Assembly (NCBI GenBank): GCA_051294905.1
Contig: CM119373.1
Coordinates: 4,836,001-4,900,000, forward strand
Source of the DNA: Botryllus schlosseri
Lineage: Eukaryota
DNA length: 64,000 nt
Direction: 5' to 3'
Part shown: one piece after another, positions 18,211 to 64,000 of the stretch
Position numbering within the stretch: position 1 is the first letter of the stretch
How the letters are laid out: each line of letters opens with the position of its first letter
Program-made: the position numbers and the translations under genes
Notes under the pieces: generated by a model
Told to the model about the DNA's origin: nothing
The model's input: only the letters and a program-made list of their open reading frames with translations
Databases searched by the model: none

Positions 18211-18222
18211 CATAATTACACT

Positions 18223-28591: not shown

Positions 28592-28649
28592 GTATTCTTT
28601 TTGGTCGAAAGTTGTTATTGTTAACTTTAATGTAACAGTTACTTTAGAC

Positions 28650-32773: not shown

Positions 32774-32954
32774 CTCTAAACGAAAAGAATATAAACAAAT
32801 TAAAACACGATCCTTCGGGAACCACACATTTCCTGGGCCCGACACCGAAAACATGTGCGGGGAAAACCCCGGCACGTGACTGCAGTTATTCACCCGTTAC
32901 AGATGCATCTGAGCTACACATGTGCAATGTGCATGTGTTGTGCATACAGTATCT

Positions 32955-35511: not shown

Positions 35512-35513
35512 GA

Positions 35514-35657: not shown

Positions 35658-36192
35658 TATTTCTGCGAAAAACAAGATCTCATGTTATTCGTCAGGTTTT
35701 CGATCGCCTCTCAGACAGGGGCCGGGTCGACGCCCGCTCATGCGATCCCCTAGCATATTAGTAATTTTTCAGAAACCCTGGTGACTTTTTTCGGCTCGGC
35801 CGACTTCGAAAAAAAGCGACGGCACACCGCCTCGAGCGCATTACAGGCCCGGATGCGATATATCGTGCTTTGAGCGTCGCTCGGTCTGGCCGTGAGGCCG
35901 AGACGTCCAACTGAGTTTTTCGGACATTGATCGATTTCAAAAAAAAATTGCGAAAAAAAATGGCCCCGACGAGCCACCGAAGCGACCCGTCGAGACCCCA
36001 ACTGAAACCGTCACCTTCACCTTCACCGTCACCGATATGTCAAATCCGAACTATTGCGCCGAACTATTGCGATAACGCAAAGTCGATATCTGTAATGTGG
36101 TCCCCCACGACTCGCCTGGCAAAATCTCGAATTCTCGCGAGGAGTTCTCGCATTGCAAGTCGTTTACGCATTTCGGAGTTATCCCTTCGCAG

Positions 36193-36333
36193 TCACAGTT
36201 CGTCGATGTGGAGCTGACTTCTCTCATAATCACAATCAGACGCCTCTTCCTCGGCCGGATCACGTGCGCTCGTGCGCGGCATCCCACACTGGGAGCATAC
36301 CCATTCGTGCTTACATTTAGGATTAGCGCTCAT
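36193..36333 (-). CDS. Micro-ORF Z2, 46 aa: MSANPKCKHEWVCSQCGMPRTSARDPAEEEASDCDYERSQLHIDEL (frame stays open for 42 more codons past the TGA)
   Basis: Manual translation; preceded by acceptor TTTGCGTTTACAG|AATTAAAATG; CxHxWxCxxCG motif. Confidence 0.55.
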   Translation of the reverse strand: MSANPKCKHEWVCSQCGMPRTSARDPAEEEASDCDYERSQLHIDEL

Positions 36334-40726: not shown

Positions 40727-42430
40727 GTGTCTGGTACATCTGAAACCTGTCGAATATAACATAGTTGTTTCCGCGTCTACGAGTCGTGTTGAGTGTTACG
40801 GTCACAACTGATAGATATGTGCCGGTATTATTGATTACACACTAAGTCATATCATACCATATAGTAATACACCATATATCAATAAACATAACATAATCAT
40901 AATGTGATAGCATATACACAGAAGCCGAATCGTTAATGGCTTGAGCTTATCAAGGCAGGACGTAAATATAATATAATACACAGGTATTGAGGGTGGCATT
41001 ACGTAGTGGCCAATAGGGTGTTGGTTTTACGTATTTTCTCATATGAACAAAGGTGTCTCCCATCGCTTCTCTAATCAATGATACGTACAGGTCGTCGGGC
41101 GCGAACATTTGAAGTCGGACCGATGTCAGGTCTTGTTACACGGGAACACTGTGTAATATAATTTTCGAACTTATAACATCCGTGGTCATGTCGAACGACT
41201 AGAACACACGAACACGGATGTTATAATTTTCGAACTTATAACATCCGTGGTCATGTCGAACGACTAGAACACACGAACACTTACTAAATTATTTCTTAGA
41301 TCTGTAACAGTAATTAGAAATTATAACACGCGCTCGCGCTTGGTTGTGCCTAATACGCACCAGTTGTGTAAACCACATATATTCGCCCTAATTGATTTCC
41401 AACTCATTGTGGGGATAAATATTTCGCGTATTAGTGTTATGATAAGAATTCAACGATTTGTACCTGCATCAATATGAAACATTATGCAACCATGTAGGCT
41501 ACCATAAACCACGTATATTCGCATCATTTGATTTCCAAACTCATTGTGCGGTGTAATATCTCGCGTATTAGTGTTATGATGATAATCCAACGATTTGTTC
41601 CTGCATCAATATGAAACATTACGCAACCAACCATCGATTTGAGTAATGCAATTGATACTCACGTCCGGTACCGGTTCGGTACGAGACGTGCTCGCAGTCG
41701 GATGCGACACCCGTGCTCGCAGTCGCATTTGAAACATGTGAAACGTAACATTCTCGAGTTCGCGTAGCTACGCTTGTTCGGTATTGATGTTGCAACTTAT
41801 ACTGATGTAGCGGGATCATTGATCACATTACAGCATGAATATAAGCAACCGTTTATAGCATCTGTAAAGAGGCGGGCGCTTCGATGTTTTGTGCTAATCC
41901 TATCCGAAGTACAAGTGCGCACAAGTACGAACAGTCGCATCTACCTGGTTTTACGTAATTTTGCAAACGTGCACGGCATTCTTCCTCGCTCTCCGAATCA
42001 ATGATAGGCACTGGTCGTCTATCGCGAACATTTGTATACGTACCGATGTTAGTTGGTGTGATGCGGGAAGGATAGGGAAAATTATAAAATACGTTTCTAA
42101 TGTAGAGAGAAAACACGAATAAACCGTTACCCGAATAGTAAGGATATTATACATCGCACGGTCGTGACTGTGTGTACCGACTACGCACCGAGTCCCAAAA
42201 CATTTTACATATGCATGATATTCCCAACTCGTTGTGCGCATGAACTGTCACGTTGTGCGCATGAACTGTCACATATACTAGTTATATGCATATAATACGG
42301 GTGAATATTTGATGGCACATGTGGTGATCTAACCTCGGTTAACCATCAGTCGCTCACAATTCGCAAAGTCTCTTCAGTCTTCATCTATCATGTTGGTGAG
42401 GCAGGCATGGAAATTGTCGGCGCATAAGTC

Positions 42431-43480
42431 TTATTCTCGACCCGCACTGCCGACGCGGACGAGGTCGGCTACGAGTATGTCTAGTATTAACTCGCACGTT
42501 GTGCTAGAAGTCGGCCTCAGATTGTAACGCAGGACAAACTCTCCAACACTAGAAAACGCCTTTCCCAAGCCTCGCGATGTTCTCCACACTCTACCAGTAA
42601 TGCGAATGGATGAAGCAGGCTCATTGGTGGTGACTACGACCAAGGTTGCACCGTTGGCTTGTTTCGATCCGTGGGGTTTGGTCGACCATGACGCATGGAA
42701 CGTTTGCTAAACGGCTGACATCATGCCGGAATGGCCACAAAAAGATAGAACTGCGATCGTGTGAGTCGATATGTAGAACTGCAACCGTGTGAGTCGATAT
42801 GTAATTGACCCACACCCGAGGCGTGGTGTGGAACTAGACTAGAAATACGCGGCAGGAATAAAATATCGCATAACAAGGTCTTTCCCGCTTCCGGCGTCCC
42901 CTTGAAAATGATATGTGGCGCGGAAGTTGAGCCGTTTCCGCGAGCCTCTATAACCGCGCACAAAAGACACGCCATTGTCTGTTCCCTAGTTCAGTATACG
43001 TAGCGCTCACAACCCGATATAATATCGTTTGCCATTTGGACGCCTTCGTCAACCGTTGTAGTGGCCGCACGAAGGCGCTTGCGCCAATCCAACAGAGCGC
43101 GATGGTGACGAACGCCAACAGTCTGCGGCCACTGATTGAAACTCCAACTCATGAGACTGGGCGAAACCGTGTAGGCCATGTTGTCCGTGAGATAGAACTC
43201 CCATTCGCCAAACGGTGGCTTCTCTTCAAATTCCATATAACCTTGAATGACGGCATGGAGTTGTGCGGTCCACGGTGCCGCGATTGGCTCCTACTACACG
43301 CGCCAGTCTAGATGGTTGCGCGTCAGTTCGACAGAACCTGTAAATATAGTACCTCGTTGATAGTGACGCAGCAATAACCACCATACAATTAATACTCACA
43401 TAAGGTTAATGTGCGCCACAACGTCCATGGTCTGCGCTATTTCATTATTTATGAAGTATGCACCGGCGCGGGTCACTATG
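42431..43480 (-). pseudogene. SF3 helicase (Rep/NS1-like) gene, copy 1, with a 62-nt intron (43338-43399) and frameshifts
   Basis: Walker A GTPEAGKT, GVGQL, motif C VVVTTN; EKPPFGEWEFY N-terminal block; GTGAGT...TTTACAG intron after DVVAHINL. Confidence 0.75.
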
Positions 43481-45030
43481 CTTCATTCATCCAGATCAGC
43501 AAATCAAAAGTTTTTTGCACAACTTTTTCCATTTTAGAAGAAAGTGTTTTCATTTTCCGGCATTCCGACCGCAGAGGTTTATATTAGATGACATCATTTA
43601 TGCGGAAATTTCGTTTCATTTCGAGAAAAGCAGCTATCTTACGCCTTAAAGCTTTATCGCAAGACGCATTTCACCATGGCACAGGTTTTCAGTTCAACAA
43701 ATGAAACTTCTGAATTGATGAATTGTTTAATTCGGGTATCTTCCGATAAACTCCCAGGCAGTTCCACTGGTAAAAATGGATGGCTTTAGCGTCCATGTGG
43801 ACTAGGTACTGAAGCCAACACTTTAACATGCGTTTCATATCATACTATTTCGAGGGCGATACTTTCACCAGTCAGACTTGGACTACTAGATAATTCTAGT
43901 TGTCAAATTCCACTAAATTAGAGCAAAGTTCCAGTAATCTAATTCTAATCTAATCTGGAAAAGCTGCAAATTTTCTAGTTGTCCAAGTATATATGCTTGG
44001 ATAACTAGATAATTCTAGTTGTCCCATTTCATTAAATTAGAGCGAAATACCAGTTATCTAATTCTAATCTAATTTGTAACAGCTGAAAATTTTCTAGTTG
44101 TCCAAGTCTGACCATTTAATGCTTCCATAGTGAATTGTTCAATCTGCACGAGCAGACTCAATAACTGCGGAGTGTCCGAATGACTTGTGTTAGTTAGATT
44201 GGAGAAAAGATGAGGACACAATATTATTAGAAGGAAGTTCCTTTCCATCGATTGGGTCAAGTGCTGAAAATCACAATAGTTTTGAGCTGGAGCAGAGATG
44301 TGATTTTTAGCATGGAGCTTGGATTGAGACTTTCGATGGGTTATGTTCCGGAGTTTTAGCAGACTCCGGAGAAGGTTTGCCAATTGATTCACGAAGCACT
44401 TGACTAACATCCTGCTTGGCTATTCGGGGATCAAGGTGTTGTTGTTTGTGAAACTATAGCTAAGAATTTGTATCGCGTCTGTATAGCTTTAACTTTGTTG
44501 CGCTCCTTGATTATCCGAAGTTTTGCTTCGGTTTTGTACACTTTGCAGCTACCGTAGGCAGCACTATGTGGCATTTTACAGTTGACACAAAATTTGTCTT
44601 TCAAAATTTGTCTTTGGTGCAGGAAGAATACTCATGCTTAGAACTACCACATAAACTGCAACATGCTTTACCTCTACAGGAATCTTCATGCTGGTCATAC
44701 TGTTCCAGTGATGGCATCTTAGCGGCGGTTGATTATGTAGTCTTGCCCGGAACCGGAGGTAAGAGGAAGTGACACTGTCAATGACCTTATCGCAGCGGAA
44801 GCACACGATAACTGATGAACACAATTCGTAGCCCGCAACAGCTTTTTCCTTTGGGGAGTTTGACGCAAAAGTTGTCGGAGTTCCGCGTCAGGAATGTCAA
44901 TTAGGACCCCGGAAAAAACCGCTCTGCAGTGTCAGACTTAGGATGGTATAGAAAGGTTTTGTCTTGAATTGTCTTGCATAAGACTTTATCTGTCAGGCAT
45001 TCGAGTCGGACTGTTGAGGAACCTGGATAT

Positions 45031-48000
45031 TAGGGTTGTTCAAAATTTGGAAAATGTTTGGAATTCTGCGTGTCCATCGCTTATTCTGTAGATTATTGTT
45101 AAAAAACAATAATGGGCTTGAAAGAAGCTCGCAGGAAAGCCGGTAATATTTGTCTAAATGCGTTTGAAAGTAGCCGTCGGCGAGTGGGCGGGGAATGGAG
45201 GAAGTGGGCGGGCAAAGAGAAGCCATTAATCCTGATTGGTTGAAGTCGGTAATAATAAGCTAATGATTGGCCGAAAGACCGACTTTGTGAACACTGCTGG
45301 TAACGATTTTTGCGTGCTGTTGTGCAGTCGTTTCTGTTGGTGGCATTACAGACATGATATATTGCCTTGGTTAATGTTGTCATCAAGAGTCCATAGTACA
45401 ACATAGCAACCGCCTAAGTTAATATCTACCTGCAGAAAGTGCTATGTATTGCACAGGTGCTCTCGCTAGTTGAGATACGAATAAACTAGATGCATGCATA
45501 TTGCTACCTTCAACCTTTCCAAAAGTTACTGACAGTGAGTGAAACTCAAAAATTTACCACCAGGAGTCAACATCTCAGTAGTACTTGTTATGACTGGTCG
45601 ACGTCTCACCCATAAACAAACGCATATTACACTTTTTATTCACAATTGAATGAAGGCGAAAAGCACTATTTACAAAAGACATTAAAAAAGTACGTTGCAG
45701 ATCAGTGTTGCATTGTCAAGTTGCAGATTACAGGCTTTTGATTAGAGTTGACTTCCTGCTGTCTCCAACTGTCTTCCTATGCTGTTCAACAGCTTGAAGC
45801 AGACTGTCTCTTTGTTGTTCATTGTCAGTCAAGATTGCAGCATAGTCTGTGCTTAGCTTTACACCTCGTTCTGCGGCATCATTAACGACTTTGACAGAGC
45901 TGATGTAGGAGCTCATTCTGGTGTAGGAATCTGATAAGCGCCAAACATCAACCGGTTGAGCTAGCCACGCCCCAGAGCATTCAAAAACATCAAATATGTA
46001 CCACGACTGTGGCCCAATAAAATCAGACAAAGTAGTGTCCTTGTTGATGTGTACAGTTGCATTCAACGAGGGCGGGCCTCTCCTGAAACTTGAAGTTCGC
46101 TCTACCTGCAGGAGCGTCTTTGCCATATTTTTTCGGGTTTCATTGCTTTCACTCGGCGAAAACAAGGCATATACAGCGGTTTCCTCCAAGATATACCAGT
46201 CATGCTTTAAAAGCTTTTGTGAAGCAGCTTTGGAAACTTGTTCATCATGTTCCTTGTAACTCAACATGTCCTGGATGAATCTCAAGTCATTACCGGCTGC
46301 ATCACGACCGATGCTGGAAGCAACCCAGGCAGGGACGTAAAAGAGAACTAAAAATAAATTGAAGCGATGCAGCAGTTCCACTTCTTCAGATTTGTAATGT
46401 AACTGATCAGCCCACATGAACATCTTCTGAGCATACAGAATTGTGCCCATCTACATTGTATGGTGTTTTGCACCAGGTTTGTGATGATGTATCTCCATCT
46501 GCCCCGGGAAGATCAAGAGCATTAGTCACACATTGTTTGTAGTCATCCCGTGAGAAGAAATCTTTTCTGGCGAGTAGTAGCTTGAAGTTCTGAACTGTCA
46601 TTGCTGCTCGTTCTTTAAAGCATATAGGAATAGTCAGAGTCTTGAATTGCTGTTTTCTGTCAAGACTGCTCCAGCTCTTCTTAAGGTGGGCAAACCATGT
46701 GTTCTCTGGTCCGGTTGTTGCTTTTCCAAATAAACATTTCCAGACGTCTTTGACTACTAGCTCATACACATGGTGCCGACACGCATGGTAAAAAACCTTC
46801 TTTCCTAGAAGGTCCTCAAGGATCTTCGCTGCACCCTTCTTCCAGCCGCTGTTGCTTGCTGTGGTGTCAAAAACCAAAGCTGTTACAGCATCTTGTATAT
46901 CTCACTTTTTAATTATGTCGAAAGTAGTTTCAGCTTAATTATGTCGAAAGTAGTTTCAGCTTGTGTCTGACCTGCCGCATTTTGTATCTTCTGAATTCCA
47001 AGTAGTTTTCCTTCCGAGTATTGAGGTTGACAAGATAGAACAATCGACAAAGCTTCATATCGATTTCCTAATCTATCTATCCTCTGTGAGCTTTCCATCC
47101 CAATGAATGGCAACATGCTGTGGTCTATTTTCGGCAAATTTTTCCAAAATGTCCTGAGATATTTCCAGGCGATTTGTTTCCCTGGCTCTCTTCGTTGAAG
47201 ATCTTGACAGGGAGAACATGGCTATATCTCCTCCACAAGCCTTAATAAATGCTCCCATCAGCATCGTTGCATCGTTGTCAGTTACTTGCAATCGATCCAG
47301 AGCTTGGGAAACATGCGTATTTTTCATAATATTTTTAGGTGCCATCAGTTTAATGGATTGGGTCGAGGTGCCAAGTCCAACATCGGCATCAAACTGTCAC
47401 CCTCTTTTGAAGAGGACGATGATGCTAAAACAACATAGTCACAACTTGAGTCGTGTGAAACGTTTTCAACAGTTTGATCTGCAATGGCTGCTGTTTTCTT
47501 TTTGAGGTCTTTAGCCAGAATTTTGTCTCTTCCCAACATTATTGACTGGCGAGATTGCCGTTGATCTTCATAAAATGCAATGTCTTCAAGCTTTCTTTCA
47601 TGTGATAGATAAATGTCATTTTGTATTGTTGTTATGGCATCTCTACTTCCAATATCCCACAGCTTGTCCAAATCATCAGTGAATTTTCTCCTCTTACCCT
47701 TGGGATCACTTTCCTGTTTCGGATTCTTCTTCAGATCACGCCATCTTTCGTGCAGGTTTTGAAGTGATCGCACCACATGTGATTTCTGCATTGTCGCAAT
47801 TCTCGCCATTGTCCACACTGTCATTACATCATCCACCACCACAGTACATAGTTCATGAGTAGGGGTTGACTGAGGACAATGCTCTTTCAGATGCAGCAAG
47901 TAACTCATTACTTCTCGTATAGTAGGTAATCTCAGCCACAGATGTAATCGCAAGTATATCCGACCAGGTACTGCTCAGATTTGGATCTTGTTCTTCGCTG

Positions 48001-48474
48001 CGGCATGTGTGCAATCTTTCGCCGTTTTGCCTCTGCCATGACTGCGCTATTGTTGCTCCAAAGCATAAACTACTGCTATCGACTCTGAAGCATTCAAAGA
48101 ACACGTGTTACAGTACTACTAATGACTCATCAACCCACAACGCGCTTGTACAGAACCACAGCCGCTACTAACAGATTCTACCTCAGCAAAACAGACTTTC
48201 AATTTAGTAAAGCGAAGCTCCCGAATCCGAGTCAGCTGTTGCAGTAATCAGTGAAGCTTAGCCGATTACCCAATCAAGAACCGTTGTTTCGTGATTGCCC
48301 GCCTCTGCTGTCGGTTGCCCGCCCACTCTAACGACTTTCAAACGCATTTAGACAAATGTTAGCGGCTTTGCTGGGAGCTTCTTTCAAGCCCATTATTGTT
48401 TTTTAACAATAATCTACAGAATAAGCGATGGACACGCAGAATTCCAAACATTTTCCAAATTTTGAACAACCCTA
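45031..48474 (-). mobile_element. hAT-superfamily (hATm-like) transposon with long TIRs
   Basis: TAGGGTTGTTCAAAATTTGG... TIRs matching for about 150 bp or more; perfect 8-bp TSD CTGGATAT. Confidence 0.92.
45728..47953 (-). pseudogene. hATm-like transposase, frameshifted (including a 26-bp duplication at about 46909-46960)
   Basis: RLPTIREV, HWDGKL, VFDTTASNSG..KGA, ACRHHVYEL, VKVVNDAAERGVKL. Confidence 0.9.
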
Positions 48475-49662
48475 CTGGATATGCTTATGATTCCGCAAGT
48501 TACTAGGAGGTTTCCCGGCCTTGAAGGACGAGGCCCTCCATATTTGCCAAGTAACGCAAAGAGTGGACTACAGTCGGGCGAAGACGTACCATTGAAACAT
48601 TATCACTCGATACAAAGACTTTCATTCCACTGCTGTGTTCGGCCTTTCCATTATTGGATAACTTCGCTGACGTGGATTGCTGAGTAGAAGGATGCGTCGA
48701 CGGCTGAATAGTAAAGAAGTATTTGCCGACACTCTAGCCTGAGCTCCCGTCCATCGCTATCGCCATCACTGCCTAGAGAATATATAGGAATGAGTGCCAG
48801 TTACGCTTTCTGGACGTCGATGTTCCCATCAAACCCTAGCCCTCGATCAATAGAGTCTGGTAATTTACCAATTGAGCAGGTGAAAAACACGTACGTGACG
48901 AGAGCAGCTGAAAAACAAGTACGTGGCGACGTCTCGAACCGAAAAAATGATGTCCATCGGTGATGCTGCGAGCAATGCACCAGGCGGTCAGTAATGAATC
49001 ACATAGTTTTCCAGGGAGCTCGCATAGACTTGCCTAATAGCGTTATTTACTCAAGTGGTTATAATCTAATACTCACACTTCTGCTTGGGGTTTTCAGTTT
49101 GTTTGTCAAACCTAGGCCTAGAATATTAATCTTTTACTTTAGGGTTACCATACGTCGTCCTTTAGGAGGGACTGTCCCACTTTTTCGGGTTTTTGAAAAT
49201 GTCGTTCGAGGACGCCTAAATAATGTCCCCCTTTTTGAGATTTTGGGTTAAACAAGAGCAACATTCGACCGAGATACCATAAAATAGCACTGAACCGACG
49301 CTCAGGCGGGAATGACGAGTATTTAGGGGCTATGCGGACGTTGACCTTATTTTTCAGTCAAGTGACTGCGAAGTGAGAAAAATTGACTAATTTTTCAGGA
49401 TTTTCCACCGGTATTCTAAGTTTGAAAATTTTGACGAAGTGTTGATTCTAAACATGGTAACCCTAGGTTACTTGAAATTCGCTACTTTACCGATTCCGAA
49501 ACTTGGTAACCCTGGGTTACTTGAAATTCGCTAGTTGTACTTTGGGAGTATATATTTGAAGCAGAAATATACGACGGGCATTCGAACACAAACAAGTTTA
49601 TGATACCCATTGTATAAAATTTCATTCGACATTTTACGTCCAGCGAAAGTTAGGCCTATAAG

Positions 49663-51148
49663 CAGGGTTGCCATCGACATGGACCCAAAAATAAGGACAG
49701 TCGGAAAACTAGATTAGCATTAAAAGGGTTTTTGTACATAGGCTATACGTTGTATTTATACGAGCCGTGGCATATCACATTCCAGAAACAACCTGCTCCA
49801 GCAACTACTTGTTTAGTAGGCCTATATATAAAGTGCATTATGGACCTCACGACAGCTCAGGTTTAGGTTTACCTTTACTCAGGGCCGAAACAGCACTTCG
49901 TCAGCCCCCCTCCAAAAAAAAACACGTTGGTCTTGCCACCCATGTGGTGATAAACCCAACCTCTTCACGTCGTTGTGATTAGAGGTGTCAACCAAGATGG
50001 AATAAGGCTGTACATCAGGTTTAGAAAAAAATAATTTTTGATCGTGGAGCAAGAACTCCAGTAACAATGCTTGTAGTCTAGGTTCTGGCCGAAGTAAACT
50101 TCTTTGCGATGTTGGAATGGGGGTAGATTGCTTTGAATAATTTCGATGTGCAATCGTTGGTGCGGGAAGATTGCTGGTGTTTGCAGTACAGAATACCCAG
50201 ATACCCTCAGAAACAGCAGCCTTGTAGTATGTAGTCGTCGGTACTGATCGACCGGTGAAAATATTATTCATCGACTGACTCAAATTAATCAACATGACAC
50301 TTCTTGTGTTTCGGGGTATCAATATGAGTTGGAATGCCGGTCTTTACTATGGTCTTCAGCTCGAGCGAGATAGTGTAATGGTTATGCGTCCGGCTTCTCG
50401 AGCGGTAGGTCGTGGGTTCGATCCCCGGCCGGGTCATACCCAAGACTCGAAAAATGGTATCCGCAGCTATCCTGCTAGGCGCTCAGCAATCACGGATAGC
50501 ATGGAGGAGAAAAAAACGGGGGCGCAGACTAGATGACCTCATGGGGCCGTATCGCAACTCCGTCGCCAAAGCATCTCGATGGTGCAGGCGAGAAAGAATA
50601 TCATATCTCTCTCTCTCTCCAGGTTAATGTCGCAATTGCAGATATTGCAATGTGCGAAGCAATCGCCCTTCAAGCTTCGTTTGATACCTTTAAATTGTAT
50701 GTAACTTATCAATGATCAATGTGCTTTACTTTTTAACCCAAGTGTCGACGCCTTTTTTCAGTACTAAACATCAGAAACCTGGTAGGTCTACTGCTAAAAT
50801 GACGTTTGCTGCGATAGGTTGGTACATCCGAAACTGTCACACCACTCATTGCCCTAGCTAAGCTATTGCACCACTTCGAAGTCAAATCAAGTGGTGCGTA
50901 CGCCACGGGAGTTCCTTTCATTCATAATGTCATAAAATCTCAACGCAAAAGCATAATTCTAGAATATTATGCAACACAGATACCAGTGGGAAATGATCGA
51001 AGTTCTGTAGTTGTTGAAAATAGTACAAAATAAGGACGCAAGTCGAAAATAAGGATATTTCTTAGAAATAAGGACAGTTGAGTTTTCTAAGACGTGGCCC
51101 TTCAAAATAAGGACAAATCTTAGAAATAAGGACGGTATGGCAACCCTG
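49663..51148. mobile_element. hAT MITE containing a SINE
   Basis: TIR CAGGGTTGCCAT / ATGGCAACCCTG; TSD CCTATAAG; AAATAAGGAC subterminal repeats. Confidence 0.9.
50364..50619 (+). mobile_element. tRNA-derived SINE (Meta-domain-like core, (CT)n tail)
   Basis: A box TAGTGTAATGG, B box GGTTCGATCCC, core CCAAGACTCGAAAAATGGTATCCGCAGCT...CTCAGCA; second copy at 62583. Confidence 0.88.
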
Positions 51149-51590
51149 CCTATAAGTTAAATAAAGTTGATGCAAAATAAAATACAGTTTCTCCTGGTTA
51201 CGCCAATGCGTCGGAACTGGTGTTTTTAGTCATCATCAAATTCGCAGTCAGCTCAATCAATTTGGTTGGCCTGGCAATTTTCACTGACGGTATAGGCTAA
51301 CTAATTATCTCGCGGGCCACACAACTCCACGGGACACGGGATTGCCGCCCCTGGTGCAACGGGACCCTACCTTAGTGATTTACGGTGTGGTCAAATGTGT
51401 AGGCAGGCAAGTGTGTGGTCGTTGTGTAACCAATTGATAGTGTGGTGACATCATGCGGCACCACCACTTTGGTCATCGAAGCGTACAGCACTTTCTCATT
51501 ATCATGTCGCTTTATATACAAAGTCGTTTGATTGTGCTTAGCTCAGTCTGCTCGAGTGATTCTTACAGCGAGCTTGTTACCCGCTCAACT

Positions 51591-53975
51591 TGGTGACCCC
51601 ACGAGCCGGAGATTTATGGATAGTGCACGCAGCAAGATGAATACAGATAATCAGTCTGGTTCAGATAGTCTACACCAGCGTTAGGGACGCAGTGGCTACC
51701 AAGCTTCCTTTTTTGCCGCCCATCCGCGCACCTGTTTTTTTTCAGGTCGAGGCCCAATTCCAGATTCGAGGAATCACAATAGACAGTACAAAGTTCGCGC
51801 ACCTGTTTTTTTTTTCAGGTCGAGGCACAATTCCAGATTCGAGGAATCACAATAGAGAGTACAAAGTTATACTACGCGATCTCCGCATTAGACCGAGAAA
51901 CAGCATGTCGACTTGTGGCCATTTTAGAGCAGCCTGTACACGAGAACAAAGATAATGCAATAAAACAACGCCTTCTTGACACTTTCGACATTCCACGACC
52001 GGAGCTCGCAGCGCGACTAATCAGCAGGCCGCGTTCGAGCAATCGGAAACCTTCCGCATTCACGGACTGGATGCTCTCTTTACTAGGTGATCATCAACCA
52101 TGTTTACCATGTCTTTACCATTCGAACACCTCTTCTTGCAGCATCCGCAAGTCCCGGTAACACCCGCTGACACTCCCAAAACCACGTTTATTACACCTTT
52201 TGTACTATTTTCGAGTTCTGCGCCTGCCATTTCGGTCTGGAGAACGCAGCAACCCAGACGTTTCAATGACTAATGGACACATTGGACACACACCGTCTGT
52301 CAATATTTCCCAATCTTGTACGTTTATCTTGATGACATCTGTCAATATTTCCCAATCGTGTACGTTTATCTTCATGTGATATCACAATGTCAACAAATCA
52401 TGTGTGTGCACAATGCATCAATCATGTTGAACATCAAATCATGTACCTCGTCAGGGGATACCATTCGCAAGTCCCGGTAGCACCCGCTGACACTCCCGAA
52501 ACCGCGTTTATCACACCTTTACAAACCGCGCTTATCACACCTTTTGTACTATTTTCGAGTTCTTCGCCTGCAATTTCGGTCCGCAGAACGTAGCCCAGAC
52601 GTTTCAACGACTAATGGACACACACCGTCTGTCAATACCCAATCGTGTACGTTTATCTCCATGACATCTTGGTCTTGGTAGGTAGCCAAAACTTCGAGAT
52701 GATAGCTCAAACTTCGAGACGCATCTCGAGCATCTTCACACTCTTTCGGCTATGAACAAAAAGAAATGGGAAGGACAAGCTTATGTTCTCTTGAGTAACA
52801 TAATGGACCACCGAGGAATCGAGCCCTTGCCCACAGACGTGGACGCAATCACGCAATTTCTGCCGCCGAAAACCTTCGAGGCTCCGCACGAATTTATTGG
52901 GATGATCAATAGTTTGGGATGATCAATTTCTATTACGAATTCGTCCCTGCAATTTGCAGATATCATGAGACCGCGTTATCGCGCGCTGGCCGGCAAGACA
53001 CGAAAATTAGTGTGGGGCCCTGAGCTAGAAAATCTTTCAATGCAGCGAAGGAAGCGTTAGTCAGCGCAACAATGTTGCACCATGAAGCGTTAGTCAGCGC
53101 AACAATGTTGCACCATCCAAGATGCGCTGTTGAAACCGCGCTCACTGTCGACGCCTCACAAACGGCAGGTGGGGAGTCCTCGAACAACTGGTCGAGGGGA
53201 AATGGTGTGTACTGGCCTTGTTCAGTCGGCAGTTACATAAGCCGGAGACAAAATACAGACCGAGAACTTTTGAGGCGCTACATTTGTGCATCAGGCATTT
53301 CCGATATTTCGTAGAGAGACGCCTTTTAACAGCTTTCACCGACCACAAGCCACTCACCTATGCATTCAGCAAACCTTCAGAGCACTGGTCAGAATGACAA
53401 CATCGTCACCTTTTCGATTTCCGAATATACCACTGTCAAATATAAGGAAAAAGCAACACGGTCGCGCCCAACGATCTCTACTGCCCTCCGGCAGCCGACG
53501 CTTTTAGACCTAAACCTTGAAAACTTTGTTAAAGCCCAAGAAACCGAAACCGACGTAAAAAAACGACCAAGTGCGGGCTTATCGCACTGGGGTTTGCAAA
53601 CCTACAGCTCAGACATTCCTATCGGAAACCCTGCAGTGCCGCTGCTATGCGATATTACTGGCGGACAACCCCGTCCTGTGGTTCCAAAACCTTGAAGGGA
53701 AAAACCTTGAAGGGAAGTTTTCGAAACAATTTACGGTTCGTCACAACCGCCCATTCGCATAATAGAAAAACTAGACCGTCCATTGGCATAACGGAAAAAT
53801 TAGCGAGCTCGAAATTCGTTTGAGATGGTATGTTCGTGGGCCAAAAGCAATGCCTGGCATGTCAGAGTTGCAGCATGTCTCGTCGCCGGTTCAAGATTAC
53901 CCAACACCCACAGCGCGCTTAGGCCTTATCCACATTGATATGATGGGCCCCCTGCCTCAATGCCAAAGCAAAACC
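51591..53975 (+). pseudogene. Gypsy LTR retrotransposon relic (PBS, gag, RT, RNase H and integrase fragments)
   Basis: PBS-like TGGTGACCCC; FFQVEAQFQIRGIT; RT segment (T.FITPF.LF...QTFQRLMD...VY..D) duplicated at about 52140-52340 and 52445-52660; TVDASQT...DRELL...FTDHKPL; IHIDMMGPLP. Confidence 0.85.
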
Positions 53976-54699
53976 TACTCCATTAGAATAATTTGAACTC
54001 TTATTGGATTAAAAACGTGTAAAACTAATGTCTAATGTAACTTTTATTGGATTGAAAACGTGTAAAACTAATTCGCATTCATTGTAAGAGCAAGGTAACG
54101 ACTTACTGCCTACAGAGAAGGGCAAAAGGGATAAACTTGAATATATAGAACAAAACATCCGTCAGTATTCGTGAATCAACGGATGGTTAATGATTTCTTT
54201 GAATAACATTCATGGTATAAGGTCCATATATGAATCGGACATATCGTACCCACGACTATGGCGATGGTCGCATCTGATAATGTCTTCCGGACTTTGAAAC
54301 GGGACCGTACCTTTTCCATGATGCGCAACAACACTCGTAGGCACCATAGATCGAGGCGAGGTCCGTTGTAGGTCCGTGTCTGAGATAGCGAATCAATTGA
54401 TTATTATACGATTATTATACGATTCAATGTCATTGAAGTTTTTAATTGAAGGCATTGAAGTTTTTAATTGAAGGCTGCGATAAAATATTACTAACGTTGG
54501 CGCGTGGCGTCTTCACAAAATATGGAGGACATGATAACAAATGGATTCCTGGGTTGTGTGATGTATCAAATTAGCTTTTTTTGACGTATTAAAATTTAAC
54601 ATAGTCCACTGTTTATATCAGTGTGGCTTGGTGATAAATCGTCGGCGACGTGCCTGAAACCTCGTACCGCGAATCCTTTTCTGGCTTGATATCACGAAA

Positions 54700-54870
54700 G
54701 TCGACCCCGGCTTCGTGACAGTGTGAAACTGCCAGAGCGACCTGATGGAAGACGCATCGCGCGGTATCCTCTGAGAACGCGCCGTAGTTGCGCTGCGACT
54801 GCCGAATATCAACAGCATGGTTCGGTCTTTCCAATCGCGAGCACCAATTCGGCTTTTTCCTCGAACCACT
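54700..54870 (-). pseudogene. Orphan Ser/Thr kinase fragment (subdomains VIa-VIb, Pim-like)
   Basis: GAFSEDTARCVFHQVALAVSHCHEAGVDFRDIKPE; the HRD motif is altered to FRD; no neighbouring kinase exons recognised. Confidence 0.65.
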
Positions 54871-56862
54871 AATCATACCGATGATTCCTGCAAAATTAAA
54901 CGATATGATTCGATCTGTAAGCAGCAAGTGAAGTTATTGCTAGGATCTCTGGGTAGAATCGAGTACCTCTATTGTAATTTGAGTCGAGAGCATTGAAAAG
55001 AGACAATACGCAGGAGTTGGTCAGTAGACAGAATGGAGAACCGTTATTCTATAAAGTACTCGTACTCAAGTAGGTTATTTATTACGACTAAGTAGGTTAT
55101 TTGTTACGACTAAACTCGAGCTGTACTTCTGCGTCACAGTTGAGTTTTTCAGTAAATCTAGGCCGATAAAAACTACCCTTTCTCATTACTTGCAAATCGC
55201 TTCTTTTACCTTTTTAATTTAGTAGCAATTTCATAAATTACTTCTACTTGAGTAACAACAACGTTGCTTTGACCACCTTCCTACAAGACGGCGATAAAGA
55301 TATTAGTTGCAAAAATGCACAATCTCGTTTAGGTCGGTAGCAAAACATTCGGCACGGATCCAAGCGATAAAAATATAGTATAGCAACATACATTTAATAC
55401 GCTGTCTAGCGATAAAAATATAGTAACATACATTTAATACGCTGTCTAGTAGAGATCATAAATTTTATATTGCACCATACGTTCACAAATCTAGCGGCAA
55501 GTCATCACAATCATCACATGGCACGCGATCAAATTAAAATCCGCAAGATACCTATTACTGCCCACTGAAGGCGATCACATCTCCCGGATCATGGTGGCTT
55601 GGAAGCCGCTTCCTCGCCTATTATGTGCAAATACTTTGTTTGCGAAAATCTAAGCGGCAGAGATGGCTGGTAGCATAGCATTTCTATTTTCTCAGAGGAC
55701 TGTTGTATCTTCCTTAACATCTATTATTTGCAAATACATTACACATAAACGTGTGAAACGACTAAAATGCACAGCAGTTAACTGAGTATCACCGTACTTT
55801 TTCACACTTTCTTTCCATACGCTTCGCAACTAAACGTATACGTGGTTGCGAAGCGCCTGCAGCACTGGTAACGGAATTTAATTTAGATCACTTGATACAT
55901 TTTGGCGTTAATACACATGGCGTTCATACACATTCATTTTAAGTCGCGAAAGACATTGTTGAATTTTCGTTTTCTGCTCCCACTTGAAGTAGGTTTGAAC
56001 GTGTCTCTGAAATCGATTGGTCTAATCGTGATTGAGTAAAAGTTACAGCCGTACTTCTATTAGAGCGTACTGTAACATTACTGCAAAGTTCTGACAAGGG
56101 CTACATTATTCTGAATGGGACTATATGACATAACATCATGATCCATTCCATCACTGTTGTCTTTGTCAACATCGCACCGGCACGATTCTGCCTAATGATA
56201 TTTCATCGAGTGCATTAAAGTACTCAGTATTAGTAGATAGTGGAACATGGCACCTGGAATATCACATTGCTTTGCTTGTTAGTTGAGGAACCGAAGCAAA
56301 CAGCTTAGCGAAAATGTGTAGACCAGGCTATGATGTAATGTTACGTGCCAACAAGTCAAATATACTTACGTCCAGTGGTGTTAAGTTGACCGGCTTTGTC
56401 GTATCTTGTGATACATTGGTGTTCGCCTGTGATTATCAATAAGCTTGATAATGTTATATCTCAACAAAGTGCCAATCACAACTAGCAATAAACCTCACAT
56501 ACATTGTGTATGTAGCTGGAGTTTATGGACTTGATAGTGATAGCTGTTTATCCCAAAATGTTGGGGCTTGCAACATGCTCTGTTTGAATTTAGTTGGATG
56601 TACCTGGTATGTTATACATAATGAATGTACATAACAATTGTACATACTTTTTTATCTGTTCCGCGGTCAACCCTCTTTGTTTGGCTCGTTTCAGCCGGCT
56701 GTAATTAACAAGATAAATTATCATACTGGTCATGCACAGCTTTTAATATGCACGGTTGCTAACCTGTTCCAGTATCCTCTTGATTGACCCATGTGCGTTG
56801 ACAGTAGGTAACTGTAATGTTGAAGGTTATCGTCATATGTTGGAGTATGCATGACATAAAAA

Positions 56863-58095
56863 TCAAACCTGATCGGAAGCATTGTTCACTGTGTCGCCAT
56901 ATGCAACACGCTCTCCTGCAGGTGTATCAGGTGGGATGATCGCCGTTGCACTTAGACATTCATAATAGTCACGAACGACATTCAGCATTGGCTGACGGCA
57001 TGCAGCCTCAATATTTGATGAATGGTCTGACTGGAAGAAGTCCACGACTAATTTGTCAAGTAGATTCTCACACGGACTATAATTAGTACTGCTTTGCTTG
57101 CTTTGCGTCCAGTATTTGAGTTGAATTGTTCGCTGAACTCCATAACCAGAAAGCGTCGTTCCCACGCGTTGATATTTTGTCTCTGGCATCCTTCAGTATT
57201 TCAAACGTGTGGTCCAAATTGGTCGTGATTACCGCAATTGTAGCTGCATTTTTTTGTTTAGATCCGCGTGATTTGGCTGACCACGGGCCGTGAAACATCT
57301 GTTTCATTGCAGCCATAATTCCAATGTTTTCCAAAACGAAAGGCCGGCGTCGTCAACTTGTAAGATTCGACTATTTGTCGACATGACTAGCTGTCCAACA
57401 CCACATGCATCCTGTGGCATACTTGTTGATATGCGTTCCGGAAAAAAAAGACTAGTAAGCAGCGTTTTGCCCGCTCCAGCCTCACCATTAATCAGGATAT
57501 GTGGTGATTCCGCCACGTCTTTGCCTCGAGCCTCAATCGCAGCACAGATCAGACAAAGCAGCGTCTCGCTATCGTTCAATACATGCCCCTGCAACGTTGC
57601 CTTCGTGACAGATGTAGTCAATATTCTGTTGACTATCTCGAGCGCATGGGACAGCTTCATGCTGTTACGTGCCCGCTGCTTCGACCACAACTCAATTGCA
57701 CGGATGCGATTAATTGATACCATTTGTGGCCATTGTTGGTAACTGCGACTGATCAACGTCGCAGGGGCCATGAATCCAAGTTTGTCAGTGACATAATACT
57801 CCCATTCCGAGAACGGAGGTTTCTCCACGAATATACAATAGCCAATGCAAGCAACGTCCATGAATTGATAGTGTCGAGATCCTCGGAGGTCTTCCGTGTT
57901 CTTATTAAACCTTGAAGAAAATATTTATGCAGTCTTGTACACAGCAATATGTGTCATTAATAACATTAAGTTAATGTGCGCGACTACGTCCGTCGTCTGC
58001 ACTAGGCTGTTCTCCCGTATGACAACTTGCCCCCTTGCTAGGATGTCTGAGATCGCATCTCGCGAATAGTTCTTTATGTCGCTATCAACCTGGAA
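56863..58095 (-). pseudogene. SF3 helicase (Rep/NS1-like) gene, copy 2, with a candidate 54-nt intron (57911-57964) and frameshifts
   Basis: Walker A GEAGAGKT, GVGQL, Walker B ILQVDD, KQMFHGPWSAKSRG, motif C AVITTN; colinear with copy 1 from DVVAHINL to CExxLDxLVxD. Confidence 0.8.
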
Positions 58096-59836
58096 ATATA
58101 CGACTTGTATCAATTATGACGGTTTACAGTTACAATTTGCTGTAATTTCTTGATCCATTCGCGTGACGGCGAACTAATAACATCAACTGTTATGTTTACA
58201 ATTATCGCTTGGTTACACACCATTAACTCACATAACCACCGAGTGTGGAGATGCTACTGATTTTGTATCTCAGCCTTATAAGCGGTTAGTTTACACATTT
58301 ATCTGTTCACCACGGTGCACATTTATCTGTTCACCACAATACTGTATGTGATATAAAAAATGTACTTGGATCAGGCACCCGCCTCGTAATAGCCGATATG
58401 AATAGGATGCATGCATGCACAATTGCTGAATATTAATCGAAACAACATAGCAACGGCATAGTATCAAGTACTGGAGGAGTGCGTCATGAAACGCATCTTG
58501 GATAGGTCACTCGTGGACCTGTAATGTTAATGACAGCCATTGTTTTAAAGGGGCACTGCGCTCTAAAAATGATGTGGTCTTAAATTGAAGAAAAAAAATA
58601 AAGAAACATTTTGGCCGCAACCATTTTCTTTAGAACGCCAACGTAAAGGAGCTTCAATTTACTGAAATTTCCACAGGACCAGAACGCTCCAGCGGTCGCG
58701 GCTGCGCGTCATTTCTTAACCCGTTACATGGCACTAGCGAATGTAAACATTACATTACATTCGATAAGGGCACGATGATTCACCGAGGCACTTGCTCTAC
58801 GCGATTAGTCAGTCTCGCAGAGAACGAACTTTAGATAGTTGTCAGCCAATGTTATGAAGTAAATATGTTTACACGCCAAGGCGGTTTAGATACGGCTTTG
58901 AACAAACGATGTTGCGATGTTGTTATGAAAAGTTGTGCGTGACGTTGGCCAGCCATTCCACTCTGGCGATATATACCGGTATGCTTTTTGGGTAGGCTGA
59001 GGAGTTGTGGGTTCAGGTTGGGTTTGCGTACCGTTGGATTACGGTTAGGGATGATGAATTTTACTACAGTACCCGAACCCTGAACACAATTTTGAATGTC
59101 ATAAATTTTGTCATGTTCATGGGGAACACTGATTGGTGGTATTCGTGTTGTGGATAATAAATTTCTGTTATCCTGAAAAAACGTTTACGGTATTGTCTTG
59201 CTCCACCCAGAATCTTCATAATAAGTTTGTTCCACTTTGTATTGAGGATATACCAATGCATTGACATTATTGCAAGCTGCAATGATGTGTGGCATGTCTG
59301 CAAAGGTAACTGAATCCTGTTATTATTTGAATCTTCCTTTGCCTTGATAACCATTTCTCAGGACTGAAAAAAAGTTATTCTCTCTGGGTAAGAAGAAAGG
59401 TATGGAAGACTTTGCTACTATGGAAAAGAAGCATCACTAATCACTTGTGGTGGTGCTGTCAGCATTGTGGACAAGATAGCAGTGTAAGTCCACATATTAA
59501 TAACTTTTTATATAACGGTATGCAATTGCAGGTGCTAAAAAGAAGATGGATGTCTCTTCTGCATCACATCACCGGCGAACATGAGTGGACAGTTGAGGGG
59601 GAGACATATTCCTGCAGCCATGGTACTTTGACTGAAGACCAGTGCCTAAGAACTAGATGTTTGCAATGCGGATCTCCTAGTTTCAAAGCATAAAATCTTT
59701 GATAGAAAACAAATTTTTGATCCGTGATTTGGAGCAGATGACTCAGTTCAAACACACTGGTAATTTTTATGACTAATCACATCTGCATGCCTCATCTTTA
59801 CATTGCTTAGGCCATTAGGCCAAGGTGGGTGTCTGA

Positions 59837-60305
59837 CAGGGTTGTAACCAAGTCACAAAGTTCTGAGTTACTAGTCATTCTCACTTATAGTTTTGACTCG
59901 AGTCATTTTCAATTCACCACGGAGTCCAAGTCATCGATCAGAGGTTGAGTCTAAGTCATTGTGTTGACTGCTCGGTTTCCAGTTAAAGTCCTGTTAAACC
60001 CACTTTTTATAACTCTGTTTGGTGATATCGAATGGTTCGCAGTTATAATATACTCATTTCCCTCACTTTTAAGTTTCTGATCGCATTTTCGAGTACCAGT
60101 ACCAATAGACGAAATCGCAACAGGGTGGTTATTGTACTGCTCTTCAAATTACAATGCAATGTCGGTCTTGGCTGTCTGAGTCTCGAGTCATATGACTTGG
60201 TTCAAGTTTTGCGCAATGACTCGAGTCCAAGTCGAGTCAATACACAGATTGACTCGATTCGAGTCATCAGAAAATCGTGACTTGAGTCGAATCATTACAA
60301 TCCTG
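59837..60305. mobile_element. hAT MITE with GAGTC repeats
   Basis: TIR CAGGGTTGTAA / TTACAATCCTG; TSD GTGTCTGA/GTGTCTGT. Confidence 0.8.
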
Positions 60306-60367
60306 GTGTCTGTTTCCATATACCCTAAGTCGCTTCGACACTTTCCTATCCTTTTATTTTCATTGTA

Positions 60368-61327
60368 GGGGAGATGTGGTACCGATGGATCAAAAATTGG
60401 AAAATGATCGCTGGCCCCAAAATGTTCAGCCGAAAACAGCAGATCTTTTGCAGGCTCAGCACTTTGATACAAGCTCTACCTATCGCGCACATATACATTA
60501 ATATTCGTCTTTTCGAAAAATATTTATGGACGTTCGAAATTTGTTGCTCGAACGTGTCATCGGTCCCCACCCGGTGGGTCCAATGGCACACGACCCGGGG
60601 ACCTATGACACATATACGCTAAAAAACTCAGATGTGACAACTGTTCTTGCTCAGTATTATAATCTAAGCTACAGCAAGCCAAAGAAGAATGTTCGATCGC
60701 AACCGTCAAAAAATAGAATAAATATTAACTCAAATGTTGCCATGAAATCACGTTTCGATTTAGGCTCAGACTTATAAATTTGAGGATACATACATATTGC
60801 CCGAAAATAAACAGTGTGACTTCCAAATACCTCGTTATAGCGATAAAACATCATATGCAAATTTTACATAAAGATTTTCTGTACGTAGGCATGTTTCATT
60901 TGTTTCATGATTAGTATGCTTGATTATTTTGCTTCATTTGGCTATTGTATCATCGGTCCCCACCCTACGAATTTTATACATGAATCGAAAAATATGCCAC
61001 TCAAGGAAGGTACTGAAAAAAATATTAGGTGCCATTATAGCCTGATACAAGCCCTACACATCACAATACAAATGATTGCTGGTTTGTTCGTGCTGAAGGT
61101 TACAGAGAAAAATGTATATGTCGATCTAAATTTAGTTTACACCCCCCAAAACAACAAACATCTGTGAGAGACCACATAGCTCGCGCACTTCAATTTTTTT
61201 TGTATGTGAGGAAAGATATTGCCAGCGTGCAATTGTAGGCAGGTTCACGAAGTGTAATCATTAAATGATCATAGAGAATTTTCAAAGTATTTTCGGTCCC
61301 AGTGATCCATCGGTACCACATCTCCCC
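60368..61327. mobile_element. TA-flanked MITE (Tc1/mariner/pogo-like)
   Basis: Perfect 25-bp TIR GGGGAGATGTGGTACCGATGGATCA; TA on both sides. Confidence 0.85.
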
Positions 61328-62159
61328 TATTGCATTTTTGTGGTGGATTGAACTCATAAAATTGCTTATAGACCTATGATGATGACACTAGTTATCGGAG
61401 CGTGGTCAGATCACTAAATTTCACACCTTCCGTTTTTAGGATCATTGGAAGTTTATCACAACGTCGTACTGAAATTTGCACCTAAACGTCTTCATTTTAC
61501 TTATGACACGAAGCTTGCACGAACCGAACTGGCAGTCCTGGATCACAATGAGAATGTTGGGAGGTTTCAAGCAGTGACACGAGGTTTGCTGTGTCCATGA
61601 CATGTCTGCAAGTCAAGGTACTTGGTTAGTTACTTACCATATATTTGTTTAAGCAGTTGTTTTGTTTAAGCAGGTGTTCTACAATTCAAAAAAAATTACT
61701 CTCGGACAGCAAAAGAGTGGATCTTGAAAAGCATGTATGAAAAGAAGACGAACCACTATGCGAGAGAGCTTTTGAGACGAACTGTTGAGAATCGCACTGA
61801 CATCAACTTCCGCATCCAGTCAGCATAGCACCAGAACCAGCTCCCTTTACAGAGGAATTACTTTCGGAACGGCGTTCCCTAACATGACTGAGATATAATA
61901 ATCTTTGTTGTTCTTTGCCAATGACTTTGTATTGCAGTGCTACTTAGGCAGCTTCCTAGCTCAATTAATTTCTTCCACATGTTTCCAACGTTGTAATACC
62001 CCAGCTATGTTCCAATTGTCTGGTATTTATTAATAATCAAAGTAGCAATGTATGAAACACAGCAGCCACTGTTGGAATATAGAATGCGAACAGTTCGCTG
62101 AAGTACACCATACGGAACTGATTTCGACTTATAGTGCAGAGCCGCAGTGTTTTTAATCA

Positions 62160-63505
62160 CAGTTCGTTTTCTGTCGGCCATTTGAAACCGACATACAGTC
62201 CATCGTCACTAGGGTACTTCTGTCTTATAGCAGTGACGATGCAGGCTGGCAAGGGCATCCGGTTTTTGCTACCCAACACTTCGCCATCCATAATCCATTC
62301 CAGTATGGGACGATAAGACACCAAGCGATATTGTCTGCAATTGGAAAATCTGAAAGTATACTGCAGCGATAAAAAAAATGCTGAAATCTAATAGCAGCAT
62401 AGAGATGACCGAGAATATGATGCTCTCAAATTAAAAAGTGTAGGCATTTTATGGAAAGTATTCGATAATAGGTTAAGAATGCGGGAAACTGTAGTTCATC
62501 TCCAACAACCATGTCACGTCACATATATATAGGTCCAATACTAAACACAATGCAAAATGTACTAGGACAGAGGCCTCAACCCAGCGAGATAGTGTAATGG
62601 TTATGCGTCCGGCTTCTCGAGCGGAAGGTTGTGGGTTCGATCCCCGGCCGGGTCATACCAAAGACTCGAAACTTGGTATCCGCAGCTATCCTGCGAGACG
62701 CTCAGCAATCTCGGATAGCTTGGAGGAGAAAAAAACGGGGGCGCAGACTAGATGACCTCACGAGGCCGTATCGCAACTCCGTCGCAAAGCATCTTGATGG
62801 TGCAGGCGAAAAAGAATATCACATCTCTCTCTCTCTCTTAAACACGCGGCCTGCGGGCCGCATTCTGCCCTTGAGACCATTTTGTACGGCCCGCGACAGC
62901 ATTTTGGATTTCGAAGTATTCGTCAATATTTAACTACCAGCAAAAAGTAGGAAATTGGCCCGCGTGCACATTTGAGTTTGAGACATCTGTTCTAGGACCT
63001 ACTTGTTAGAAAGTCTGCTGCCAGGACCGTGCGGTTGATTGTTATTATTTCAGTTTTTTTCTGTTCACTTTGAAAAATGTTTCAAGAATGGAGGGTTGTA
63101 TATGTAGGATAAAATCGTCACGTTCTTTTATGCAAGGCGACCCTCCATTCCCCAGCAGCTCCATCATTTGTTGTATTTCCCTGCAGCAAACACACTCATT
63201 CTCGTTTGGCATGCGTGGACAGTTCAAGCAGCTGCACCATTCATTGTCAAGTGTCCGAAGTTGACTCTGGTTTTCTGACGATTCCTTTGACCAATACAAT
63301 AACATTGATAAATTGCATTCAAGAAACACAGTGCAATACTTACAGCGACATGAGTTTGTGCTTCTTGAGTTGCAACGAGACGGGCGAATTCCTCCTGTGA
63401 ATATTGCGGTTCGAATTGATACGGCAGGCTCTCACCAAATATCGTGATATCTTCTACATCTGTGTCTTCATCAGAAGTTAATTCATCACACAGATCTTCT
63501 TCCAT
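62160..63505 (-). CDS. KolX-like protein (P2X7 cytoplasmic-ballast-like Cys-rich domain), spliced
   Basis: Acidic N-terminus with PYQFEP; WCSCLNCPRMPNENECVCCRE; downstream exon YRLVSYRPILEWI...LGSKNRMPLPACIVTAIRQKYP..DG.YVGFK. Exact exon boundaries not resolved. Confidence 0.75.
62568..62989. mobile_element. hAT (Buster-like) MITE containing a SINE, in the KolX intron
   Basis: CAGAGGCCTCAA...TTTGAGACATCTG; TSD TACTAGGA/TTCTAGGA. Confidence 0.75.
62583..62838 (+). mobile_element. tRNA-derived SINE, second copy
   Basis: Closely similar to 50364-50619 over its full length; (CT)n tail. Confidence 0.88.
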
Positions 63506-64000
63506 ACCAGTAATAATTTTAACAAATTATATATTATCTACGTATCAAAGGAATTGCATAAATGAACTGATGGAAAAAAAATTCATTTGTGAAAGTGATA
63601 ACAATATGATACGATAAAAGTATCACACAACAATATTTGTACAAGCCTGTCTGCATTCGTTCCCGACTTGCAACTCAACGGCGCTTCTTTGAAGTACGAT
63701 CCAAAACAAGCAAATGTCAATCGTGCAACCAATGCTTTCCATGAACACGATAGACAGGTTGTGTAGAGCAAAACGGAGATGAATATGGCCGTTATAGGAC
63801 TGCATTCAAGTACAATTTTGTAAACAGAGCTATTTTATTACAATATCCCATCACTACATGGCCGGTTTCAACTGATAACGCCACAAAAGCTATAAACCGG
63901 TGACATGGTCGACATTGCAGATCCAGTAGTAAGGAGAATTGCCCGTGGACCTTTAGGGGCTTTGAGGGAAAGGAAGGCACACTACACTATCATTTGAAAT

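Follow-up and report, generated by a model that had tools for sequence, protein, structure and literature searches.

The window examined here, a 64,000-nucleotide stretch of the Botryllus schlosseri genome (C3:4836001-4900000; host genome 495 Mb, telomeres TTAGGG), carries two broken copies of a gene for a superfamily 3 (SF3) helicase related to the Rep/NS1 proteins of parvoviruses. A first-pass annotation, made from the sequence, had described two colinear genes with a shared set of helicase motifs; six-frame translation found both on the minus strand where that annotation had put them, and their proteins align with 38% identity over 159 aa (E=3e-34). The Walker A motif reads G-x-x-E-A-G-K-T in copy 1 and G-E-A-G-A-G-K-T in copy 2, and exon 3 of copy 2 retains Walker A, Walker B, motif C and the arginine finger. 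That both copies are broken had been missed: copy 1 is 5'-truncated at 43484, without an exon 1, and its exon 3 is interrupted by stops and frameshifts (near 43280, near 42990 and several past 42800), and exon 3 of copy 2 has frameshifts near 57330, 57190 and 57100. Exon 1 of copy 2, also overlooked, lies just past the window end at C3:4900847-4901071 and contains one stop; it was pushed away by an unrelated transposon with terminal inverted repeats (TIRs) (Table 1). The two copies in the window, each from a different subfamily, are dead genes in decay.

A search of the host genome with the copy-2 frame gave 41 matches among 46 candidates, which bears out the amplification proposed earlier, and the matches form two groups. 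Group A, to which the window copies belong, is intron-bearing, and group B (L016, L019) has no introns and carries HUH motifs I-III and the SF3 domain in a single frame; the family that includes both window copies counts at least 20 loci. Group A genes have three predicted exons. Intron 1 (phase 0), which the annotation did not record, follows the motif-II strand, and intron 2, the short phase-2 candidate that it did record at the same codon of both copies (62 and 54 nt), lies within motif III. The latter holds up well: the GT donor is kept in 13/13 copies examined and the AG acceptor likewise in 13/13, the interiors vary in sequence and in length (46-93 nt; for copy 1 and L008 the pattern used in this count stopped at an AG further upstream, and another analysis gave 62 nt for both), and in copy 2 the intron does contain an in-frame stop, TAA. 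We infer from these features that both introns would be spliced.

Ancestry of the family and loss of its nuclease

A profile search returned 88 relatives, 59 of them at E<=1e-10. The names of 10 were looked up: eight were unnamed, one was 'hypothetical' and one was an uncharacterised protein of the tunicate Styela clava. In a quick tree of 50 rows, for which 38 of the 88 library matches and 10 family rows were entered as single natural frames only, with no named parvovirus sequences among the rows, the 10 group-A rows formed one clade (SH-aLRT 100) nested in a 97-supported group that also contains group B. The predicted model of the group-B protein L016 (pLDDT 66) had adeno-associated virus 2 (AAV2) Rep68 as its top match in the PDB and matched parvovirus NS1 in BFVD, with papillomavirus E1 also among the top fold matches; in the atlas, the group-B relative scored 0.93-0.94 to Cossaviricota NS1 clusters. 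The atlas and fold matches thus point to Cossaviricota. For the window family itself, Walker A and B, motif C and the arginine finger were recognised by motif alignment, and the fold was taken from L016. Profile, fold of the relative and tree together show that the window family descends from a parvovirus-type Rep/NS1, and the lineage of HUH plus SF3 Rep/NS1 proteins that holds it is unnamed and parvovirus-like.

Sequence searches of Pfam, PHROG and the PDB with the helicase gave only P-loop-level matches below the cut-off, with no Parvo_NS1 match in Pfam and no full-domain match to a cellular AAA+ family. This outcome agrees with the earlier view that the genes are not members of a host AAA+ family. 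A word-indexed protein search with the helicase found one homolog among 5123 candidates, and a search of IMG/VR found no relative. The sole metagenome locus matched over 129 bp at one end of an unrelated, phage-like contig, and was discarded.

The annotation had also asked whether an HUH-fold domain precedes the helicase, and it does: a profile of exons 1-2 matched the N-terminal HUH domain of the relatives (p=93.7%, E=2e-7), in keeping with the Rep68/NS1-like fold of L016. The alignment pairs W-W-x-F with motif I, L-G-L-I with H-G-I-I, and H-x-N-L-M with Y-I-N-Y-M. The motif assignments offered at first have to be revised, since VAHINL, suggested as motif II, aligns with the relatives' Y-I-x-Y-M-x-K and is thus a degenerate motif III, and GY.....K, suggested as motif III, lies downstream of the nuclease domain. 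The catalytic motif-III Tyr is present in 34/35 relatives versus 0/13 group-A copies, and the motif-II His, present in 33/35 relatives, is replaced in the aligned exon-1 copies of group A (motif roles as given in the part of PMC6668415 drawn on here). Because the metal-binding His and the catalytic Tyr are lost, the copies are not new rolling-circle elements, as had been proposed.

The helicase gene nevertheless evolved under purifying selection. The ratio of nonsynonymous to synonymous substitution (dN/dS) of exon 3 was 0.11-0.32 in 5/11 pairs, both window copies included, with dS saturated in the other six; therefore the gene was kept long after the nuclease was lost. It likely gained its two introns. 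The same elements carry a second gene, which is paralogous to the HUH part (p=85.7%), has no helicase and shares intron 2 in 5/5 copies. The paralog at L037:355-1294 has an unrelated helical C-terminus and is conserved in at least six element copies.

Genuine parvovirus-like insertions of the same protein lineage are present in the genome as a separate, intronless clade. L016 sits in an insert of ~5.4 kb, downstream of a Gly-rich open reading frame (ORF) and together with a second, overlapping ORF. The insert has a hairpin on its left (z=-8.0); on the right the candidate (z=-1.0) is not significant. The word-indexed search found no homologs of the Gly-rich ORF of this virus-like locus, hence it is capsid-like by position and poly-G only, and the Gly-rich ORFs of L016 had no match at any family locus tested. 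The parvovirus-like insertion at L043:1455-6800 (C3:8.427-8.433 Mb) has a left hairpin, an unbroken NS1-like frame, Gly-rich ORFs upstream and an overlapping second ORF, and about ten decayed relatives of it lie on C3, C5, C7 and C10.

Recombinase elements and their likely link to the window

The search for intact copies that the annotation had recommended yielded three group-A genes with every exon open (C1:13.16 Mb, C5:20.77 Mb and C16:22.37 Mb). Comparison of the first two defined one element at two sites (C1:13153775-13185807 and C5:20784992-20750445; 32,033 and 34,548 bp), with 99.6% identity over 22.8 kb and 98.6% over another 8.4 kb and a 5-bp direct repeat, TAGAG, at each end. Its target is a miniature inverted-repeat transposable element (MITE) of high copy number (1224 candidates in the genome), four copies of which are empty sites with the left and right element flanks contiguous. 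A genome search with the element ends recovered further elements of 11-19 kb, and 8/10 left ends and 7/7 right ends fetched lie at the same MITE position, one of them in reverse orientation. A sister subfamily has TAGGG at its ends and sits in TTAGGG-like repeats. These data show the ends and the target specificity of the element, which appears to have been recently active in the animal.

Codon periodicity among the alignable blocks of the 32-kb element was confined to the helicase, the paralog, a recombinase gene and one small exon. None of its other frames of at least 150 aa was gene-like, and the tested ORFs matched no virion family. Neither a double-jelly-roll capsid nor a packaging ATPase was seen among ORFs and conserved blocks, a search that intron-split divergent genes could escape.

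The recombinase gene, located 20-22 kb into the element, is intron-split and encodes two C2H2 fingers and the residue pattern T-G-x-R, H-L-R-K, H-(x)9-Y, which we take to be that of a tyrosine recombinase, whose catalytic residues are R-H-R-H/W-Y; its atlas score to integrase/PF00589 clusters was 0.95. In each of the four helicase subfamilies, at least one locus has a recombinase gene close by, at spacings of 11 kb, 24 kb, ~19 kb and 2 kb. On this basis the element is predicted to move by a tyrosine recombinase. Related recombinase genes without a helicase also occur in subtelomeric units at the ends of C30, C9 and C4 (L128-L134), which form 17-19 kb tandem repeats on C30.

The window copies likely derive from such large tyrosine-recombinase elements, to judge from shared interior DNA and subfamily, the basis used because no terminus was found beside them. 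The window fragments at 22686-25806 and 32902-33004 run colinear with the interior of the C1:23.06 Mb element, and also with recombinase loci on C7, C3 and C17. The locus at C3:1.16 Mb likewise has interior DNA in common with these elements. Copy 1 is 76.6% identical to the gene at C1:23.06 Mb over 1.4 kb and has the downstream flank in common with it; this nearest element belongs to the TAGGG subfamily, with its left end at C1:23040815 and 75% identity to the 32-kb element. The 7 kb upstream of copy 2 exon 1 match the interior of a TAGGG-ended element on C11. Crypton-type terminal direct repeats of 4-6 bp without long TIRs were found in the sister elements, not in the window.

Table 1. Features of the window assigned to the helicase copies and to recombinase elements (window positions)
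Feature	Position	Strand	Remarks
Recombinase-element interior fragments, colinear	22686..25806	+	82-94% to elements on C1, C3, C7, C17
Interior continued past inserted BEL/Pao-like long terminal repeat (LTR) element	32902..33004	+	Colinear with the interior of the C1:23.06 Mb element
Fragment	35303..36663	+	88% to DNA between copy-2-type helicase gene and recombinase exon, C1:29.13 Mb
Copy 1 downstream flank	41634..42333	-	Common to sister element C1:23.04-23.09 Mb; element interior, no terminus
Copy 1 exon 3	42334..43337	-	Helical linker and SF3 helicase; dN/dS 0.22 vs L008
Copy 1 predicted intron 2	43338..43399	-	62 nt, phase 2, GTGAGT..TTACAG
Copy 1 exon 2, 3' part	43400..43484	-	Degenerate HUH motif III without catalytic Tyr; homology to C1:23.06 Mb copy begins at 43484
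Copy 2 downstream flank	56078..56862	-	Common to copies at C3:30.27 Mb and C14:24.47 Mb
Copy 2 exon 3	56863..57910	-	Linker and SF3 helicase; dN/dS 0.11 vs L002
Copy 2 predicted intron 2	57911..57964	-	54 nt, phase 2, GTTATT..TTCAAG, in-frame TAA inside
Copy 2 exon 2	57965..58089	-	Degenerate HUH motif III; intron-1 acceptor AG at 58091-58090
Unrelated TIR transposon	58545..64000 (ends 64572)		Sits in intron 1 of copy 2

Hairpins beside the copies had been raised as possible viral termini. The palindromes near them (window 43871-44112, C1d and C3c) match dispersed repeats and differ between loci, and were rejected. A 518-aa ORF for a PIF1/RecD-like SF1B helicase at 33103-34659 has 30 genome matches, some in frames of more than 1100 aa; because its relatives cluster on C13 and C17, it was rejected as element cargo and is taken to be a separate family. 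The window also holds a BEL/Pao-like LTR retroelement (25819-32901, DUF1759 gag) inside the recombinase-element fragment interior, and decayed DNA transposons at 45031-48474 and 38300-40500, one with 165-bp TIRs and one hAT-like. A near-complete Maverick/Polinton occupies 3978-20388, with TIRs of 346 bp (92.8%) and long ORFs resembling protein-primed polymerase, major capsid protein, protease, an integrase with chromodomain and ATPase, the first two named without a Pfam match. Elsewhere, at C3:30258945-30280795 (L051-L053), a giant inverted repeat with arms of ~8 kb (90-95% identical) surrounds a copy-2-type helicase gene.

Competing explanations

In our judgement it is fairly probable that the window genes are broken fragments of three-exon, Rep/NS1-derived helicase genes, likely from tyrosine-recombinase elements with a proposed circular stage. 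The earlier suggestion of endogenous single-stranded DNA virus-like elements would then be right as to parvovirus-like ancestry and wrong as to the vehicle, the copies having most likely spread as a gene of these elements. In the proposed cycle, the recombinase would recombine the direct repeats and excise the element as a double-stranded circle, and the circle would re-insert at the same core, which lies in a repeat of high copy number (in one subfamily a MITE, in another TTAGGG-like repeats); this route is proposed because of the precedent of Cryptons and Starships, as far as it is described in the portions of PMC3212892 and PMC11162782 used. The dead HUH domain may bind an origin and the SF3 ring may unwind it, a role modelled on papillomavirus E1 and polyomavirus large T antigen (from the consulted part of PMC6668415), after which host polymerases might copy the unwound circle. 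Shorter, gene-less elements would have moved in trans.

Several observations weigh against this explanation. Neither a family terminus nor a recombinase exon was found in the window, the 10 kb before it or the 57 kb after it, and the region is repeat-dense, so that neighbours may be accidental. The recombinase has no Pfam or PHROG match, DUF3504 and DUF3435 included, its search among longer proteins found no homologs, and its structure model is poor (pLDDT 35). The helicase and recombinase trees agree on the four-taxon split, with the L006 and L008 types paired against the other two, but such agreement has a one-in-three chance. Around the C3:30.27 Mb and C14 copies, a search out to ~15 kb turned up no recombinase (at six further loci the search covered ~5 kb on each side only), and recombinase loci without a helicase exist on C7, at C3:8.76 Mb, on C17 and in subtelomeric arrays. 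Six of the seven other end-bearing elements tested have neither gene. Splicing and expression also lack the backing of RNA reads: in the bulk runs sampled (4 of 21, 6-13% of each) reads covered only repeats and none fell on the unbroken helicase gene or the paralog, and no indexed RNA run is listed as containing the gene.

A bolder proposal, which we put forward tentatively and which may well prove wrong, is that these elements form a new class of self-replicating animal transposons, capsid-less, site-specific and moved by a tyrosine recombinase, that captured a parvovirus-type Rep gene, silenced its nuclease, intronised and duplicated it, and now amplify as circles in the manner of E1 or large T. 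Because gene-less elements and helicase-less recombinase loci exist, the helicase may instead be dispensable. In that case the vehicle would be unchanged, the helicase would ride along passively or in an accessory role, for instance as an antiviral decoy poisoning the NS1 rings of parvoviruses or as a help in excision, and the circle would not replicate. This reading is favoured by the intact-looking parvovirus-like insertions of the same lineage in the genome, and by the HUH-derived paralog, which lacks a helicase and shares intron 2. We regard this alternative as rather unlikely, since purifying selection has kept the helicase motifs in four subfamilies that are deeply diverged and have a recombinase apiece, which is long for optional cargo. 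It seems improbable that the element is a mid-size DNA virus in integrated form, Polinton-like or nimavirus-like, with virion genes that went unrecognised or are supplied by a helper. A recombinase and a helicase do make up the replication module of some Polinton-like viruses (PMC11296320, in the part used), and the recombinases of nimaviruses carry C2H2 fingers and are directed to repeats (PMC10871703, likewise in part); against this, the genes of the 32-kb element are intron-split, and the codon periodicity limited to four of its features, the virion-family searches and the lack of further gene-like frames give no sign of a virion gene set.

Still less probable are independent insertions of a parvovirus-like virus with a spliced NS1, or of a small rolling-circle transposon, with the recombinase linked by accident. 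Real parvovirus-like insertions with a hairpin end do occur in this genome, and many helicase copies lie in one repeat-dense region of C3. However, no copy examined retains the nuclease residues that rolling replication needs, the Tyr being gone without exception, which largely refutes this idea; moreover, the capsid-like ORF of the virus clade matches no family locus tested, and copies outside that region sit within or beside recombinase elements. Least credible of all is that segmental duplication expanded a domesticated family of host genes: introns and purifying selection speak for it, but most copies are broken, the unbroken ones lie in or next to mobile elements whose ends are precise and whose target sites are independent, and the sampled RNA runs revealed no expression.

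Should the favoured explanation be correct, an animal would harbour a giant cargo element with programmed target sites, comparable to the giant recombinase-driven cargo transposons established in fungi (Starships). Nuclease inactivation, as seen in its Rep, is believed to lie at the root of the papillomaviruses and polyomaviruses, and the homology still present is sufficient to trace residue loss, intron gain and duplication. The E1-like reading, if true, would be an independent repeat of the transition from single-stranded to double-stranded DNA replicon behind those two virus groups. Genome engineers, too, would be interested in a eukaryotic recombinase able to place 30 kb at a defined 5-bp core. 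The analysis further exposes the unnamed parvovirus-like Rep lineage, with the 59 proteins at the stricter threshold and one annotated in Styela clava.

Comparison with known systems

Defining features of parvovirus insertions, of rolling-circle transposons and of Starships were tested, and the element lacks them. The intronless relative resembles parvovirus NS1 and AAV Rep68 in domain order, fold, Walker A and B, motif C and arginine finger, whereas the window family lacks the catalytic His and Tyr and has two predicted introns; the 4-6 kb unit with a linked capsid gene and terminal hairpins that marks parvoviral NS1 loci and endogenous viral elements was absent from the family loci tested. 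Helitrons and Replitrons use a catalytic HUH Rep as transposase, which the family does not possess. An SF3 helicase with an inactivated HUH domain is shared with papillomavirus E1 and polyomavirus large T (PMC6668415, in the portion used), from which the family differs by an independent origin in another Rep lineage and by its place in an 11-35 kb integrating element in which no capsid was found. In the literature searched, Repbase, subscription papers and supplements lying outside its scope, we did not find a recombinase element with a Rep-derived helicase described in animals.

Among recombinase systems, the portion of Kojima and Jurka (2011; PMC3212892) drawn on describes Cryptons as having a tyrosine recombinase, short (5-bp) terminal direct repeats and a proposed circular intermediate. 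The element shares the 5-bp terminal direct repeats, a candidate recombinase and a proposed circle, but it is much larger and target-site specific, carries C2H2 fingers and virus-derived genes, and has no DUF3504 match. Starships, according to excerpts of PMC11162782, are giant elements that a recombinase mobilises, that carry cargo and direct repeats, and that insert at specific repeats; the element differs in its animal host, the absence of a DUF3435 match and a recombinase in mid-element instead of a 5' captain. By description (PMC10871703, in part) the recombinases of endogenous nimaviruses are alike, being C2H2-bearing, sometimes multi-exon and directed to telomere repeats or other repeats, and no nimavirus gene set was seen in the element. 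Polinton-like viruses, as outlined in part of PMC11296320, combine a recombinase with a replicative helicase in a 15-40 kb integrating element; here the helicase is Rep/NS1-derived, and no capsid, packaging ATPase or protease was found. By analogy with these systems, the element may work like a Crypton or a Starship in its movement and like E1 or large T in its replication.

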